50,874 bases of DNA from a virus. Where the stretch lies: positions 1 through 50,874 of IMG/VR virus record IMGVR_UViG_3300036783_000164, one strand, 5' to 3'. Positions within the stretch are counted from its first letter, which is position 1; every line of letters begins with the position of its first letter. Position numbers and translations under genes: made by a program. Under the pieces are notes generated by a model. That model worked only from the letters and a program-made list of their open reading frames with translations. It was not told the DNA's origin and did no database searches. Shown piece after piece: positions 30,003 to 37,265 of the stretch.

Positions 30003-31703
30003 CTAATCATTAAAATTCCACACTTCAACAACTGGTTCTGACGTTGTTAATATCATAGAACGTACATGAGCATTCATTAATGAAGCAATAGGATCAATTC
30101 TTTCAATAGATTTCGATTTATCTAGCATGATATTTTCATTGTGATCTTCTTTCGTAACAGAATTCCCAACAGCCCAACCTAGAACTGGATTATTGTCATG
30201 AACAACATTCTTAGAGTAAACTTCTTCTCTGAAGTTCTTTGTCGGTTCGCCCAGCGTGCCGATTCCTTGTCTAATTTCAACCATTACATATCCTTCAGCT
30301 TCCATATCCTGAGAAAATTGGCTTGCATTCCATGGATCATAACAAATTTCTTTTATAACAATTCCGTATTCTTTTTCAAGATTCTTGATATATTTTTTAA
30401 TATAGTTATAGTCAACTACACTTCCTGGCGTTGTTGTTATATAACCTTGTTCGTTCCATAAGTCATACCTAGTTTTATCCTTTTTCACTTTTTCCATCAT
30501 CGTATCTTCTGGCATAAAACTATGACTAAAAACGTTGTATTTATCAGCTTTGATAATGATTCCAAGTGAAGTTAAATCAATTTTAGCTGATAAATCTATG
30601 CCCAATACTGCCTCATGGCCTTCAAAATCTTTAAGATTTAAAGAATCATCTCCACATTTATTCCACTTGGCCATATCCATATAGCCATTGTCTTTCATAT
30701 CGACCCAAATATTCATATTTTTAGTTAAGAAACTTCTCATTTTCTTTGGGTCTTCAAGTGCTTCTTCGAGTTTAAGCTCAATGCTATTTATACCCTCTTT
30801 ATAGGTACAAACTATAGGATTGGCTTTGATCCAATTTCTTTTATCTTTAATATCATCATCTTTATCCAACTCACAAATCATCACAAAATAACGTTCGTTC
30901 TGAGTTTTATATTCTTCATCAATAATCTTAGACACATATTGATATTCAGAAAAACAAGGAGCTGCCTTGTTAAAACCAGCTGTTGTGATAATTACTAGTA
31001 ATGGATTTTTACGAGAAATCATCCCCGAGTCTAATACATCATATATTTCTGACGTCTCATGACAATGGTATTCATCTAGAATTCCTAAACTTGGGTTACT
31101 TCCATCACCGGATTTTCGGGCTTCTTTTGATAAAGGTTGAATTATAGAGCCTGTTTTTAAATGTTTTATCTTTCCGTAAGAGTCAGAGTATTTCCCTTTA
31201 AAAAGTTCAACTGGAGACAATTGCAAATTGATTTCTGAATACACTTTATCTGATTGATCGCGACCCCAACCAGCAATATAACATTCTTCAACTTCACCTG
31301 ATAAAAATGTTGAATACGTAGCTATAATAGCTAACAATTGGGATTTTGCATTTTTTCGAGCTAATTGGATATAAGATTTCCTGAAACGCCTAGAATCATC
31401 TTCTTTTAATTTCCAACAAAAGATATTACCACATACAAATAGCTGAAAATCCGTTAGTTCAATGTATTGACCAGCAAGGGTTCCTTTTGTATGTTTGAAC
31501 ATCTTTGCCCATACATAAAAATCTTCTAGCTCAGAAATATCGAAATAAAATGGATAGTCTTCTTGGCTAATCTTTGTTAAGTCATTTAAAAATCTATTGC
31601 AAGCTGCTATGTGTTTTTTACAAGCTATTATTTTGCCATCAACAATATCTACAGCATAGTTATATACCCGTTCAAATAACTCTTCGGCTGTAAACTCATT
31701 CAT
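30003..31703 (-). CDS. Terminase large subunit
   Basis: 566 aa. Terminase_1-type ATPase followed by a nuclease domain. Overlaps the terS stop. Confidence 0.9.
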   Translation of the reverse strand: MNEFTAEELFERVYNYAVDIVDGKIIACKKHIAACNRFLNDLTKISQEDYPFYFDISELEDFYVWAKMFKHTKGTLAGQYIELTDFQLFVCGNIFCWKLKEDDSRRFRKSYIQLARKNAKSQLLAIIATYSTFLSGEVEECYIAGWGRDQSDKVYSEINLQLSPVELFKGKYSDSYGKIKHLKTGSIIQPLSKEARKSGDGSNPSLGILDEYHCHETSEIYDVLDSGMISRKNPLLVIITTAGFNKAAPCFSEYQYVSKIIDEEYKTQNERYFVMICELDKDDDIKDKRNWIKANPIVCTYKEGINSIELKLEEALEDPKKMRSFLTKNMNIWVDMKDNGYMDMAKWNKCGDDSLNLKDFEGHEAVLGIDLSAKIDLTSLGIIIKADKYNVFSHSFMPEDTMMEKVKKDKTRYDLWNEQGYITTTPGSVVDYNYIKKYIKNLEKEYGIVIKEICYDPWNASQFSQDMEAEGYVMVEIRQGIGTLGEPTKNFREEVYSKNVVHDNNPVLGWAVGNSVTKEDHNENIMLDKSKSIERIDPIASLMNAHVRSMILTTSEPVVEVWNFND

Positions 31704-32233
31704 AATTTAGACCCAAATTTCTTTTCTGCTATTGTTTTTGGCTGTTCTTCTTGTTTTGTAGGCATAACTAATTTACATCTTGAAGTAATAGTTAAACCTA
31801 AATCACTAGCTGCTTGTCTACATTGTTTAAAAAGCTTGTCCTGATTAACGAGCAAATCTGTATAAACATCATTTGAAACTATCTCTTCTATGGATTCAAC
31901 TTTATTGCCATCCTGATCGGATTTAATAAATATCTCTATCTTCGTTGGGGAAGTATCAAGTAGTGTTTCTGTTACTTGCCAATACATTTTTTCAGACAAT
32001 AAATAACGAGCTAGTGCATCGACATCGAGATTAGACATAATCCCAATTTCCGCTAGCTCGTCAGAAATCTTTTTGAATTTTCTTCTTAAATCTTTCGGGA
32101 GGTAAGTCGGTGCTTTTATCCTATTACTAGGCGCTTTAATTTCTTGCGACTTCCGTTCCTCAATTTCTTGTTTTGTTAAATTCTTTTTTCCTTTATATAC
32201 AATCAAGTCAATTGGTTGTCTTGGCCGTGCCAT
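31700..32233 (-). CDS. Terminase small subunit (P27 family)
   Basis: The N-terminus, from MARPRQPIDLIVYKGKKNLTKQEIEERK to APTYL, is typical of P27-family TerS. Confidence 0.85.
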   Translation of the reverse strand: MARPRQPIDLIVYKGKKNLTKQEIEERKSQEIKAPSNRIKAPTYLPKDLRRKFKKISDELAEIGIMSNLDVDALARYLLSEKMYWQVTETLLDTSPTKIEIFIKSDQDGNKVESIEEIVSNDVYTDLLVNQDKLFKQCRQAASDLGLTITSRCKLVMPTKQEEQPKTIAEKKFGSKL

Positions 32234-34325: not shown

Positions 34326-34687
34326 GAAATCACCTCAAAAGAATCTTTTTTTTAAAAATCCATAACGAAAACTAATTTATACAGGGAAATTAATACCCCA
34401 TACATCTAGTTTTCTATTTAGTTTACATAATTATTGTTATGGGCAGTTCTTAAAAACTAATATTATGGGAAATCGTTGATAACACTAACTTCCCGTAACA
34501 TATAATTCCAGTTCTTTATGCACGATTTTATACATAGCGTAGTTTAGCGGGTTTTCCGCACCTAATCACCGTTATTTCCTGCATAAACTTCACCTTGTTA
34601 ACTATCTCTATTTTCGTTCACTTTTGTTACTTTATTAGCCTCCGAATGTATATACCCATGAGGAACCCAATATAAGGAGGCTTTGTT

Positions 34688-34813
34688 ATGAAACTTAAAA
34701 AGACAGAATTAGAAAATGGAATGATCACTTCAGAATGGGAATTTGATATTGTCGGTTGCATCTACGCTATCGCCAATTTAATCCGCGCTCTCCATGAAGC
34801 AGGAATCATTTGA
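34688..34813 (+). CDS. Possible 41-aa plus-strand ORF in a 500-nt gap
   Basis: Sequence MKLKKTELENGMITSEWEFDIVGCIYAIANLIRALHEAGII. A strong SD TAAGGAGG lies 7 nt upstream. Below the track cutoff. Confidence 0.35.
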   Translation: MKLKKTELENGMITSEWEFDIVGCIYAIANLIRALHEAGII

Positions 34814-34830
34814 TTCTTGCTTTTCCATTT

Positions 34831-35139: not shown

Positions 35140-35418
35140 CTATAAATCAAAAATCTTTTCCTTTATATCTGCATTTTGTATACACTCAACAATTTCCTTA
35201 CCATCTAATAATGTAGTAATTTCAATTTCATCATCTTCTGCTTGATTACCATTTAATAACACACCTACATTAGCGATAGCATCTCCTAATTCTTCAAATG
35301 CTTTTGTGCAACCTTCAGTAGCTTTCTTTAATCGTTCAAGTTTTACTTCCGCTTCATCAGTGTCAACATTAACTTCGATATCTAATTTATTTCTAGGACT
35401 CTTCACTTCTTCCATCAT
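35140..35418 (-). CDS. Hypothetical acidic protein
   Basis: 92-aa ORF with SD aggaggatga upstream. Confidence 0.6.
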   Translation of the reverse strand: MMEEVKSPRNKLDIEVNVDTDEAEVKLERLKKATEGCTKAFEELGDAIANVGVLLNGNQAEDDEIEITTLLDGKEIVECIQNADIKEKIFDL

Positions 35419-35485
35419 TCATCCTCCTATCCAAATATCCATTTCATTCATCTTCACGTTTAATGTGTAATTTCTATATAACAAA

Positions 35486-35510
35486 GAAAAAAGCACCCGT
35501 TATGGATGCT
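35486..35510 (-). terminator. Rho-independent terminator
   Basis: On the minus strand, AGCATCC-ataac-GGGTGCT followed by TTTTTTC. Confidence 0.55.
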
Positions 35511-35519
35511 GAATATGCG

Positions 35520-35737
35520 CTATTTATCATCTTTAGTTGTTTTTTCACTTACTCTCATAGATAATACATTGTCTAAATTAATCCAAGTATCATTAAGTTG
35601 AAACCATTTTGATTCACGAGACCTAGTAATATAATCCCCTAGTGTTTGAACGGTAGTTTCATTATCATCTTCGTACCAGCAACATGTTTTCTAGTTTTTC
35701 CATTATTCAATACGATTTCAATTATAAATTCTTTCAT
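35520..35737 (-). pseudogene. Small gene split by a frameshift (or sequencing error)
   Basis: MKEFIIEIVLNNGKTRKHVAGT... stops after 32 codons. A second frame continues with EDDNETTVQTLGDYITRSRESKWFQLNDTWINLDNVLSMRVSEKTTKDDK but has no start codon of its own. Confidence 0.35.
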
Positions 35738-35765
35738 CGCCTATCACCTCATATCTTATTATACA

Positions 35766-35795
35766 TAACAAAAAGCCATCACCGAAGTGACAGCT
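35766..35795 (-). terminator. Rho-independent terminator closing the ORF-free tract
   Basis: On the minus strand, AGCTGTCAC-ttcg-GTGATGGCT followed by TTTTTGTT. Confidence 0.65.
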
Positions 35796-36597
35796 TTCAA
35801 GGGGATGGGAGAAAAGAGAGAAAACAAATGGCAAAGTTTCTCTTAGATCAAGGCTGAGTACTCTCAACCTTCTCAAAACAACCGATACATACAATGTGGC
35901 TCAGGTTTTTAGCTCTTTGGCTATCCTGATTATCGTGTTCGGTTGCTTAGAGAAGGAAAAGACCTTCTCGTTTATACTCCGTAGAGCTTGTCGAATGAGA
36001 GCTATGGTGTAACTCTCTTATAAAGTTTTTTTAATTTTTATCAAGACGTATGAGTTTATTCCGACGCCTTGTTTGAACCAATACACTAGAGGGACGGAAG
36101 GGGAATGTTTCCGCTGTATTGGCTCAAACAAAGAGTGGAACTCTTTGCCCTCGTTTTGGTCATTAATAAGAATCGTGAGTAATTACTAATGTACGAGATA
36201 CGTATACAACTTATTTGGGGTACTCAGAAACGTGATGTTTGTTCAATCAAGAACAACCACCCCCATTTCCATTTTCAAGAGACGACATAATAGAGAGTAA
36301 TAGACTTATATTTATTATCAACCCAGAGGACGCATTCCGAGCTGATTGATAAATACAATAGAAACAGCATGACGAATGCGAGTTATCTCACACCCGCCAC
36401 ACTGGAATATGTCATTGTAATACATTCATTGGTCTTTTCGTCTTAACGCGGGTTCGTACCGCCTTGCCCGCCCTACTATGCGGTATACGTTACCGTGACA
36501 TTCTCGCATAAGAACGTTTCACTTATAGGTGTACTAATCCTCTTCAATATGCTGTTGTCAAAGGGCTTGTACATTAAGAATACCGTTGATTTCATTA
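35796..36597 (-). ncRNA. Candidate large structured non-coding RNA (about 0.8 kb)
   Basis: No ORF in any frame. It is embedded in a tightly packed minus-strand operon, is G+C-richer by eye, and ends at a terminator. A 16-bp interrupted helix pairs 36068-36085 with 36115-36133. Hairpins lie at 36129-36147, 35950-35969 and 35850-35871. Confidence 0.4.
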
Positions 36598-36861
36598 TCA
36601 AAATTCCCCCTTTTTATCCCCTATTTTCTCGGGATTTTCTCGGTGTTTTTTCAATTCAAAAACTGCTTTAAAACGTTTAATTTCCTTACCTTCTTCTGTT
36701 TTAAAATATCCATAGAATAATTTTGCCGGTCTCACCCAGACTAACCCTGTCTCGACTGACATATAAACTACCACATCTTCTCCTGTTTCTGTATGACGTG
36801 CTACCTCAGCTATAACACGATATAAACCGCCTTTATAATGTTCGTATAACATACTGTTCAC
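36598..36861 (-). CDS. DUF1653-like protein
   Basis: YEHYKGGLYRVIAEVARHTETGEDVVVY matches the DUF1653 signature from memory. Confidence 0.65.
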   Translation of the reverse strand: MNSMLYEHYKGGLYRVIAEVARHTETGEDVVVYMSVETGLVWVRPAKLFYGYFKTEEGKEIKRFKAVFELKKHRENPEKIGDKKGEF

Positions 36862-36878
36862 CTTTTCTTATAATATTT

Positions 36879-37265
36879 TTAAATCATCCCTAAAGCTGTA
36901 GCAATCAATCGAATAGCATTCTTTTTCTTTGCATAGAATGGATCTTTCTTAATTAGCAATTCGTTGTAAATATAATCGTCCTTTAGTTTCTTGTTACTTA
37001 GATACTTCATTTTGATGATATTAACTTCATCTTCATCTAAGCCGTAATTCAATACCCTTTCTACTTGTCTAAACTTCATTTCATTAATATGTTTTGTATC
37101 ACGAATTTCAGGGAATAAACTAATTCCTTCTTGCCTTTGCTCTGCTTCATTCTCGAAACATATCTTTAATGCTCTGTACTCCTTTAAGATGCTTACTACT
37201 TCCTTCTGCACCTTCTTTTCTGTCTCCTTATCGATAGCCGGTAATAAAGTCAATTGTCTCTCCAT
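36879..37265 (-). CDS. ArpU-family late transcription regulator
   Basis: 128 aa. The overall pattern is LLPAIDKETEKKV, then ILKEYRALK, then the C-terminal AIRLIATALGMI. It sits at the early/late boundary. Confidence 0.7.
   Translation of the reverse strand: MERQLTLLPAIDKETEKKVQKEVVSILKEYRALKICFENEAEQRQEGISLFPEIRDTKHINEMKFRQVERVLNYGLDEDEVNIIKMKYLSNKKLKDDYIYNELLIKKDPFYAKKKNAIRLIATALGMI

Follow-up and report, generated by a model that had tools for sequence, protein, structure and literature searches.

A probable new class of large structured RNA encoded behind ArpU-type repeats in phages and phage-plasmids of the Bacillus cereus group

Two giant RNAs encoded by phages, GOLLD and ROOL, have functions that are unknown (PMC12286853). 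GOLLD RNA increases during lysis and forms a homo-oligomeric, RNA-only nanocage, and ROOL RNA can be highly abundant yet non-essential, with no protein partner known (PMC12286853). GOLLD is often encoded beside tRNA islands. Large noncoding RNAs of another kind, termed conAn2, are 260 to 600 nt in length, are located where long operons of pLS20-like plasmids of Firmicutes begin, and bring about antitermination in cis (PMC8191782). Herein, we describe a structured-RNA tract of ~805 nt on the minus strand of a viral DNA (IMG/VR record IMGVR_UViG_3300036783_000164, positions 1 to 50,874). The tract spans positions 36570-35766, from the inferred transcription start through the U-tract of an intrinsic terminator. 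The entire stretch of DNA that was analyzed (50.9 kb; 50,874 nt) is called the window throughout this report, and all coordinates refer to it. The tract is almost certainly the gene for a conserved noncoding structured RNA, and this RNA very probably constitutes a new class.

The minus-strand transcript folds into more than 15 helices that are supported by covariation. The minimum free energy (MFE) predicted for this RNA (808 nt folded) is -253.5 kcal/mol, compared to -195.8 +/- 6.7 kcal/mol for dinucleotide-shuffled sequences (z = -8.59), whereas the same shuffle test applied to the plus strand yields a z of only -2.13. A total of 110 full-length copies were reduced to 98 representatives sharing less than 97% identity, which were aligned, and RNAalifold analysis of 96 of these sequences predicted 184 base pairs. 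Across the 96 relatives, 92.9% of the alignment cells at these pairs are canonical, compared to only 42 to 46% when the 3' partner is slid by one to three columns as a control. Likewise, cells carrying double-sided compensatory changes number 601 in the predicted pairs and 164 to 246 in the slid controls. Because the sequences are related and mosaic, such cell counts exceed the number of independent events, an effect that is partly offset by the slid controls and by the existence of 28 sequence versions of one helix (Pb, see below). When the same 184 pairs are read on the opposite strand, canonical cells fall to 79.4%, with many invariant G-U pairs turning into C-A. Thus, the numerous G-U pairs identify the minus-strand transcript as the folded strand.

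A formal covariation test was applied to the portion of the RNA that includes the helices called Pa, Pb, and Pc (domain C, alignment A2, 29 pairs). In this domain, 97.3% of cells are paired, compared to 34 to 49% in slid controls. There are 152 double-sided cells, compared to 32.1 +/- 4.7 after shuffling, and none of 500 shuffles gave a value as high. Double changes occur at 13 pairs, a number reached by only 2 of 500 shuffles. In the default MAFFT alignment, Pa is misaligned in the nine sequences that diverge most, and this test therefore understates the covariation of that hairpin. A covariance model of domain C scores 72 to 142 bits on the sense strand versus 24 to 37 bits on the antisense strand and finds exactly one copy per locus. 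A sequence-only reading of this DNA had proposed that the tract encodes a large structured RNA, possibly of a new class, and the fold, the abundant compensatory changes in the alignments, and the Rfam results presented below all support this proposal.

Conservation among the relatives starts abruptly at GUAC/AAGCCCUUUGACAAC (AAGCCC; position ~36572) and stops at the terminator, and the structure model is weak at 36238-36149 and at 35850-35809. An all-against-all analysis of column covariation, conducted to look for pseudoknots, returned 682 "pairs" that are mostly spurious products of kinship and mosaicism, and no pseudoknot is claimed. Given that phylogenetic linkage generates such spurious column pairs, only stacked antiparallel runs were trusted.

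The strand asymmetry of the fold refutes the idea that the tract functions at the level of DNA, for example as a cos or pac site, as a replication or partition site of a phage-plasmid, or as a single-strand origin. A site of this type might be expected here, given that the tract precedes packaging genes and that its carriers replicate as plasmids, and direct repeats do adjoin the tract. However, canonical pairing, folding energy, and covariance model scores are all specific to one strand, and sites in double-stranded DNA have no need of compensatory changes. Moreover, the end of the record of phage 0105phi7-2 lies ~2.6 kb from the tract, and the repeats fit the published arrangement for ArpU-type activators (see below). 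We therefore regard a DNA-level element as very improbable.

The protein-coding capacity of the tract is also poor. Its neighboring genes all reside on the minus strand, and it is flanked on one side by the stop codon of an 87-amino-acid (aa) DUF1653 gene (36598-36861) and on the other by a small gene fragment that begins at 35737. A mechanical listing of open reading frames (ORFs) includes none longer than 58 aa in any frame of positions 35738-36597, which agrees with the earlier claim that the tract is free of ORFs. Furthermore, no reading frame is conserved across the 98 representatives, wherein stop-free stretches vary in both frame and strand. Stop-free stretches of up to 150 aa in some relatives are antisense, differ in frame, and are of low complexity, with the exception of three loci (L110, L112, and L123) in which the stretch is a genuine upstream regulator gene. 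Insertions and deletions among the relatives measure 34, 45, and ~100 nt, which are not multiples of three. Such clean changes at fixed sites are typical of structured RNAs and are incompatible with a reading frame.

Base composition provides a weaker signal. The G+C content is raised in the tract (0.37 to 0.41, compared to 0.31 to 0.35 in the flanks), as the sequence-only reading had stated, but the increase is modest rather than striking. GC skew shifts from values of -0.3 to -0.55 in the coding flanks to approximately zero within the tract.

A decayed pseudogene or a neutral spacer would also lack ORFs, and this absence is the sole observation that favors either explanation. The tract, however, is the best-conserved stretch of its region, in which the adjacent genes are swapped among relatives, and its compensatory substitutions refute decay in practice. 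In addition, the homologous regions of the relatives are likewise ORF-free and unannotated, and no relative examined carries an intact gene at the homologous position. The probability that the tract is a remnant or a spacer is thus close to negligible.

A small-protein or leader-peptide locus was also considered. On the minus strand, a Shine-Dalgarno-like sequence (GGGGGA) and an ATG (both within ~36610-36594) start an ORF of 39 to 41 codons (36476-36601) that overlies the 5' domain of the RNA and spans its first two hairpins, P1 and P2. The same two signals recur in most of the phage types that are distinguished below by their upstream repeat boxes, and the ORF is open for 23 to 41 codons in several of these types. 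However, in most box types the ATG precedes the conserved block by either 27 or 29 nt. Types that differ in this spacing read the conserved RNA in different frames, and the frame is thus not conserved. Also, a 34-nt deletion in three relatives (L007-L009) shortens the ORF, and one box type has no ATG at this place. Under the promoter model described below, the ATG would fall in the promoter spacer, before the start of transcription. A peptide would explain at most 120 of the 805 nt in any case. We judge it very unlikely that the tract is a locus of this kind.

We then consider whether the RNA is a divergent member of a large RNA family already described, as its comparable size and phage setting might suggest. 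None of the 4,227 families in Rfam 15, including GOLLD, ROOL, and OLE, matches at its gathering score anywhere in the window. A permissive search of 1.7 kb (35300-37000) gave miRNA and snoRNA models as its best matches (E = 1.1 to 7.2) and no GOLLD match at E <= 10. These results indicate that the RNA is not GOLLD, ROOL, OLE, HEARO, raiA, a group I or group II intron, RNase P, tmRNA, EAR, 6S, or another curated family. Furthermore, ARAGORN found no tRNA or tmRNA genes in the window, and thus the tRNA island that might accompany some of these RNAs is missing. Membership in a known large RNA family (GOLLD, ROOL, OLE, HEARO, raiA, or a group I or II intron) is therefore highly improbable. No published description of this RNA was found in the literature searched, which included the papers on 0105phi7-2 and B83.

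Relatives of the tract are common among mobile elements of the B. cereus group. Matches identified by blastn occur in nine phage records, including those of IEBH, 250, LY4, PfNC7401, PfIS075, and 0105phi7-2, and none of these records annotates anything at this location. In 0105phi7-2 (L002, OQ317942.1, 49085-50025), the locus tags skip from 0105phi72_077 to 0105phi72_079 exactly over the RNA region, and it seems that a gene call numbered 078 was dropped by the annotators. A further 159 plasmid records from Bacillus (B. cereus group) match at 192 places with 67 to 95% identity, essentially without annotation under the match. Exact-motif scans of IMG/VR yielded 94 and 87 contigs, and viral and metagenome contigs carrying the RNA number ~130 in all. 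Matches were found to 33 metagenome contigs, all but five of which align to the RNA of the window with 71 to 93% identity. Ten species genomes in GTDB match, of which nine are B. cereus sensu lato, and seven of these nine carry the match on contigs of 52 to 68 kb, a size appropriate for phage-plasmids. The match in the tenth genome is on a contig that is probably a contaminant (see below).

Several additional matches require separate mention. An RNA with 83% identity is present in a Bacteroidota assembly labeled "Chryseobacterium proteolyticum" (L150, NZ_JBJLWK010000024.1), where it resides on a contig of 865 nt with a coverage of ~1 and is almost certainly contamination. Seven IMG/VR loci that share a 19-mer with the tract are chance matches that represent a single coding sequence of an unrelated phage group. 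Three metagenome loci that share an 18-mer, two of which are one sequence, also look like chance matches, whereas two others (L156 and L159) are a deletion derivative that is described below.

The order of features around the tract is constant, wherein a late activator gene is followed by zero to two small genes, the tract, its terminator, small ORFs, and then terS and terL, the packaging genes. In contrast to these elements, phi105-like phages of B. subtilis, whose ArpU protein is 52% identical, carry no such tract and give no match to the covariance model, and thus ArpU is not generally accompanied by the RNA. Within the range of the searches, the element is specific to phages of the B. cereus group, where Cecivirus-like siphophages and phage-plasmids carry it.

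Three parts make up the RNA, all encoded on the minus strand, namely a 5' domain (~300 nt) that is optional, a 3' core (~470 nt) that is autonomous, and a terminator hairpin. The 5' domain (36265-36570) begins with hairpin P1 (GUACAAGCCCUUUGA/UUGAAGAGGAUUAGUAC; 36531-36572), which is evident from both RNAalifold and pair counts and is conserved with few compensatory changes. It is followed by hairpin P2 (GUGAAACGUUCU/AGAAUGUCAC; 36495-36522), which is the structure cleanly removed by the 34-nt deletion mentioned above, and by P3 (36431-36494), a branched stem that carries two 4-bp G+C-rich hairpins (CCGC/GCGG and GCGG/CCGC). Next is P4 (36365-36404), an 18-bp, near-invariant hairpin that includes six G-U pairs, is capped by an AUAA loop, and is followed by UUUCUAUUGU. 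At least 91 of 94 to 96 sequences pair at 17 of the 18 positions of P4, and 86 of 96 pair at the position that closes the loop. The G-U pairs of P4 fix the strand of the RNA, and a terminator scan scores this hairpin as a terminator-like internal structure. The last element of the domain is a long two-part hairpin, P5 (UUGUAUUUAU..AUAAAUAUAA and UCAGCUCGGA..UCUGGGUUGA; 36306-36358), the outer stem of which has five pairs with double changes (43 cells) within one 9-bp run.

It was also observed that P4 (36404-36365) and the terminator hairpin (35798-35771) share arm sequences (GUGUGG../..GUCAUG compared to GUGAUGG/CUGUCAC). These arms could cross-pair through conserved runs of 7 bp and 6 bp, which exhibit no covariation. 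Perhaps this is a coincidence, or perhaps it reflects control of termination.

The 3' core (~36264-35801) is enclosed by a long-range helix that adjoins the terminator hairpin. The 5' arm of this closing helix (GGGGGUGG; 36257-36264) pairs with the 3' arm (CCAUCCCC; 35801-35808), and both are conserved with one-sided changes only. Immediately within it is hairpin P6 (UUGUUCU/UGAACAA; 36239-36256), wherein pair 448-459 is UA in 45 sequences and CG in 40. A variable region (36149-36238) that aligns poorly and differs in length among relatives separates P6 from the Pa/Pb/Pc module (36148-36041).

This module begins with hairpin Pa (GCAAAGAG/CUCUUUGU; 36128-36148), which is formed by arms at 36148-36141 and 36135-36128 and has three compensatory pairs. 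Helix Pb (CUUUGUUUGAGCCAAUACA/UGUAUUGGUUCAAACAAGG; 36067-36133) is formed by 19 bp between 36133-36115 and 36085-36067, and it encloses a distal stem that is variable, together with a loop rich in C. No other helix of the RNA is as well supported, given compensatory double changes at 10 pairs (143 cells). Its 28 sequence versions, as exemplified by CUUUGUUUGAGCCAAUACA/UGUAUUGGUUCAAACAAGG compared to CUUUACUCUAGAUAAUAAG/CUUGUUAUCUAGAGUAAGG, retain 17 to 19 of the 19 pairs in all rows except one that is truncated. Double changes are found at four pairs of hairpin Pc (CAAGGCGU/ACGUCUUGA; 36041-36071), the 5' arm of which shares nucleotides with the outer pairs of Pb. The sequence-only reading had discerned a 16-bp interrupted helix between 36068-36085 and 36115-36133, one arm of which could instead form an 8-bp hairpin at 36129-36147. 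Both structures are real and correspond to Pb and Pa, respectively, except that Pb proves to be uninterrupted and longer than was proposed.

Downstream of this module, hairpin P7 (35976-35987) has a C(UACG)G tetraloop and is followed by the near-invariant sequence UAUAAACGAGAAG. An expansion site is located directly after this sequence, where IEBH and LY4 carry insertions of ~35 nt and phage 250 (L003) carries ~100 nt that forms an extra hairpin, UUUCUCACGGG...CCCCGUGAGAAG (alignment A1, columns ~890-1000). P8 is a hairpin formed by GAGAAG and the CUUUUCCUUC region (35953-35969). P9 is a helix of 12 to 13 bp (CUCUAAGCAACCG/CGGUUGUUUUGAG; 35872-35952) that encloses a variable inner stem-loop and has compensatory changes at several pairs, with inner pair 769-779 being AU in 44 sequences, GC in 34, and UA in 9. 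P10 is a 9-bp hairpin (AAGGUUGAG/CUCAGCCUU; 35850-35871) in which three pairs have double changes and one position exhibits six pair types. Two hairpins that had been noticed previously by eye, at 35850-35871 and 35950-35969, are both confirmed here, the first by its covariation.

The RNA ends with an intrinsic terminator (35766-35798; hairpin 35798-35771) that is composed of a 12-bp stem, GAAAGCUGUCAC-UUCG-GUGAUGGCUUUU, and the U-tract CUUUUUGUU. A UUCG-loop terminator on the minus strand had likewise been recognized in the earlier reading. Its stem is paired in 80 to 88 of 91 to 92 aligned relatives per position, with some compensatory changes.

Alternative pairings are evident at two sites. 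First, the 3' arm of Pa (CUUUGU) can pair with GCAAAG to form Pa, or with ACAAGG, which extends Pb and dissolves Pc. Compensatory changes are consistent with all three of these helices, that is, Pa, Pc, and the extended Pb. Second, GAGAAGG is present twice, in the P8 region and at 35874-35868, with CCUUCUC or UUUUCUC as possible partners.

Some relatives possess only part of this architecture. The 5' domain is absent from the RNAs of L110, L112, and L123, which comprise only the 3' core and extend from the G-rich arm of the closing helix, with a start just upstream of this arm, to a terminator. These short versions indicate that the 3' core is able to stand alone. In place of ArpU, these loci (positions 534-1650 of L110) encode a different late regulator of 151 aa (PHROG 36/PHROG 10157) with a C-terminal helix-turn-helix, and this gene is followed directly by the short RNA, then by small genes and terS.

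The region upstream of the RNA suggests how it might be expressed. As had been claimed from the sequence, a gene for the late-gene transcriptional activator ArpU lies upstream (36879-37265, minus strand, 128 aa; NCBIfam TIGR01637 phage_arpU, 45.7 bits with a cut-off of 43.1; PHROG 248, "transcriptional activator"). The DUF1653 gene (36598-36861, minus strand, 87 aa; Pfam PF07866) intervenes between arpU and the RNA, and it is optional, being absent or replaced in relatives. The gene directly 5' of the RNA in relatives is arpU, a methyltransferase gene, or the gene for a PHROG 36 regulator. Just ahead of the RNA are four direct-repeat boxes in 11-nt phase (CACCGAGAAAAU CCCGAGAAAAU AGGGGAUAAAA AGGGGGAAUUU; 36601-36645, minus strand), which are putative recognition repeats for ArpU. 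These are followed by a weak sigma-A-like promoter (TTGATA, 17 nt, CTTAAT; 36573-36601, minus strand) that was read from the sequence and has the same layout in other box types. Transcription would then start at ~36570-36566, and the conservation of the RNA sets in directly after the promoter.

This arrangement is shared by every relative, wherein an A-run precedes the repeats, and the repeats precede a weak sigma-A-like promoter. In each of the 56 distinct upstream sequences, between two and four direct repeats are present, and these are in 11-nt phase. The box CCGAGAAAAU occurs twice in the window (36643-36623), where the box tandem is unique, and the box sequence varies with phage type, the others being CGGAUAA, GCGAAC, GCAGAGAAA, GGGAACAAA, UCGACAAA, and GGGAGAAAA. 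Among 57 loci, the ArpU proteins form five clusters, of which four have a single box type each (with one locus unclassified) and the largest has two. This match between box type and ArpU cluster persists where the boxes are 263 to 889 nt away from arpU with another gene in between.

The ArpU, RinA, and LtrC activators bind direct repeats located just downstream of their own genes, and these repeats are activator-specific and are required for activation of the late (terS) promoter (Quiles-Puchalt et al., PMC3753634). Based on this precedent, on the ArpU-type repeats, and on the match between boxes and clusters, we propose that the promoter of the RNA is an ArpU-dependent late promoter, and it seems likely that the RNA is transcribed late and in an ArpU-dependent manner. 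The sequence-only reading had placed the tract inside an operon. The tract is more than that, in that it begins at what appears to be the ArpU-dependent late promoter itself.

Between this promoter and terS (P27 family; 31700-32233, minus strand; TIGR01558, 81.4 bits), where the packaging and structural genes start, are the 805-nt RNA, at least four terminator-like sites, and ~7 small ORFs. Past the RNA terminator, a second intrinsic terminator is located ~260 nt further on (35492-35510, minus strand) and is the first of several before terS, and a terminator scan identified additional sites at 34081-34064 and 33389-33363 (minus strand). Long-stem terminator-like sites were also observed on the minus strand within the late region, at 25570-25541, 24637-24615, 16542-16518, 13048-13020, and 12029-12004. 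The terminator-like sites of the late operon number 16, compared to 11.1 +/- 3.2 in shuffled sequences, and are thus not clearly above expectation. Phage IEBH has the same terminator layout.

We slightly favor the explanation that the tract encodes an unclassified, two-domain noncoding RNA of ~805 nt that is expressed late and is a stand-alone ornate RNA. In this scenario, ArpU would bind the repeats and turn on the weak promoter late in infection, and RNA polymerase would begin near 36570. The majority of transcripts would end at the UUCG terminator (35798-35771), giving rise to a compact RNA that accumulates as a discrete species. Like GOLLD or ROOL, this RNA would function in trans in the late phase, most likely as a self-assembling or protein-binding scaffold, and the fraction of transcripts that reads through would supply the small genes and the terS-terL late operon. 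Three features lead us to rank a trans-acting ornate RNA first, namely the closing helix that abuts the terminator, the highly conserved unpaired segments together with P4, and the size of the RNA. A discrete RNA is also favored by the strength and conservation of the terminator, and by the autonomous 3' core that follows a different late regulator in L110, L112, and L123. That the role is carried out in trans by a stand-alone RNA, rather than purely in cis, is nevertheless a proposition for which we see the chances as evenly balanced.

Several observations weigh against a late-expressed, stand-alone RNA. The start site, the dependence on ArpU, the efficiency of termination, and the stability of the RNA are all predictions made from sequence. 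A consensus promoter scan did not call the TTGATA-CTTAAT promoter, which is weak, and the correlation between boxes and ArpU clusters could stem from physical linkage rather than from specificity. The RNA lacks the tRNA neighbors seen with GOLLD and ROOL. The two sites with mutually exclusive, covariation-backed helices are reminiscent of a switch. The window has no ArpU boxes other than those in front of the RNA, and at least four terminators separate these boxes from terS, which fits a read-through device acting in cis at least equally well. Finally, two metagenome contigs with identical sequence (L156, ~1270-1640, and L159) have ArpU-type boxes (CGATAAATAG CTGATAAAATG ...), the same promoter, and the same start (..TATCTTAC/AAG), followed by only ~110 nt before a terminator. 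They retain the invariant ACGGAGUAUAAACGAGAAGG and have lost nearly all of the RNA. These loci represent a natural deletion derivative, and the RNA may be dispensable, or these elements may be defective.

The main competing explanation assigns the RNA a role in cis as the leader of the late operon, wherein it would enable RNA polymerase to pass the terminator of the RNA and later ones. It could do so by altering the elongating polymerase, as in processive antitermination (compare HK022 put, EAR, and conAn2), or by switching its conformation. This arrangement would make sense of the only ArpU-type box array in the window being placed in front of the RNA, with terS 3.5 kb further on, terminator-like sites in between (35798, 35510, 34081, and 33389), and others inside the late operon (25570, 24637, 16542, 13048, and 12029), and of IEBH having the same layout. 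Moreover, the two mutually exclusive sets of helices (Pa or Pc versus the extended Pb, and GAGAAGG/CCUUCUC) are backed by covariation or conservation, P4 is an internal terminator-like hairpin, and conAn2 RNAs of 260 to 600 nt provide a precedent (PMC8191782). However, ~805 nt with more than 15 helices exceeds any known antitermination RNA, and a very strong, conserved terminator placed right at the end beside a closing helix is the architecture of a stand-alone RNA. Also difficult to reconcile with a leader are the count of terminator-like sites, which is not clearly above that of shuffled sequences, the dispensability in some relatives of the 5' domain with its most conserved hairpin, and the deletion lineage described above. 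On balance, we consider a cis-acting leader to be unlikely, although cis and trans roles are not mutually exclusive.

Two bolder proposals extend these explanations. One is that the RNA is a giant leader at an ArpU promoter that licenses the late genes, wherein switching between Pa/Pc and the extended Pb, an action on polymerase, or both would set the choice between stopping and terminator resistance through the packaging, structural, and lysis genes. We offer this only tentatively, as a possibility somewhat on the doubtful side. Alternatively, the RNA may be a third class of self-assembling, RNA-only nanostructure beside GOLLD and ROOL, and one that is tied to a defined promoter and timing.

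Two other observations were made in the interval before terS. The first gene past the RNA terminator (35520-35737, minus strand) appears to be broken, wherein a 32-aa ORF (35639-35737) with a good ribosome-binding site is followed by another frame that continues to ~35520. Either a sequencing error or a frameshift in a small gene could account for this, and homology to gene 079 of 0105phi7-2 was ruled out. A second gap of ~500 nt (34326-34830) is devoid of minus-strand genes. Here, the plus strand carries a 41-aa ORF (34688-34813) that is 73% identical to gene 085 of 0105phi7-2 ("41-residue family in Bacillus chromosomes"). It has its own terminator (34796-34823, plus strand), is convergent with the genes of the late direction, and could be a small toxin- or regulator-type gene.

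To our knowledge, bacterial and phage noncoding RNAs that exceed 500 nt and have conserved, intricate folds are very rare, with approximately a dozen classes. Each such RNA that we know of (rRNA, RNase P, group I and II introns, OLE, GOLLD, and ROOL) exhibits unusual biochemistry or an unexpected architecture. The RNA described herein is as large as GOLLD. In contrast to GOLLD and ROOL, its position in the genome is defined, behind ArpU-type repeats and ahead of packaging genes. Its carriers include phages that can be cultivated (IEBH, 250, LY4, and 0105phi7-2) on tractable hosts, and thus the purpose of a giant phage RNA becomes directly testable. If the RNA acts in cis, Gram-positive phages would have a new means of controlling late transcription through a very large RNA, one that exceeds put, EAR, and conAn2 in size. 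The annotation of late operons in phage-plasmids of the B. cereus group needs to be changed in either case, given that at least 159 plasmid records and nine phage records are blank at this location.

A comparison with the known systems places these findings in context. The late promoters controlled by ArpU, RinA, and LtrC resemble the one proposed here in having activator-specific direct repeats situated between the activator gene and the promoter. In the characterized phages, this promoter drives terS directly, whereas in the elements examined here the RNA, terminators, and small genes precede terS.

Among cis-acting systems, conAn2 is similar in that a large noncoding element opens a long operon with internal terminators on a mobile DNA of Firmicutes, which is a likeness of layout only. 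The conAn2 RNAs are poorly conserved in sequence, follow the conAn1 processivity gene, have no terminator of their own, and serve conjugation operons. In contrast, the RNA reported here is larger, is far more conserved, ends with a strong terminator, and resides in a phage late operon, where it may act in antitermination. In the lambda pR'-tR' gate, a promoter-proximal transcript (6S) ends before the late genes, and in HK022 put a cis RNA yields a terminator-resistant polymerase. These transcripts are 70 to 200 nt in length, and the RNA of the window is four to ten times larger. The lambda gate requires Q protein at a constitutive promoter, whereas the promoter here appears to be activator-dependent. 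The likeness to conAn2, to put, and to the lambda gate is thus one of position only.

The RNA described here differs from both GOLLD and ROOL in sequence and in fold. ROOL RNAs are also large (~600 to 660 nt), ornate, and borne by phages or prophages, but the RNA described here does not match the ROOL model, is not part of a tRNA island, and is found in a different group of hosts. GOLLD is similar in having at least ~800 nt, multiple domains, and extensive pairing, and in residing in Firmicute phages or prophages, and its expression is tied to the lytic phase, as is proposed for the RNA of the window. However, the Rfam model for GOLLD does not match this RNA, which has no tRNA genes nearby and is restricted to phage-plasmids of the B. 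cereus group, where it holds a fixed position behind an ArpU-type late promoter.

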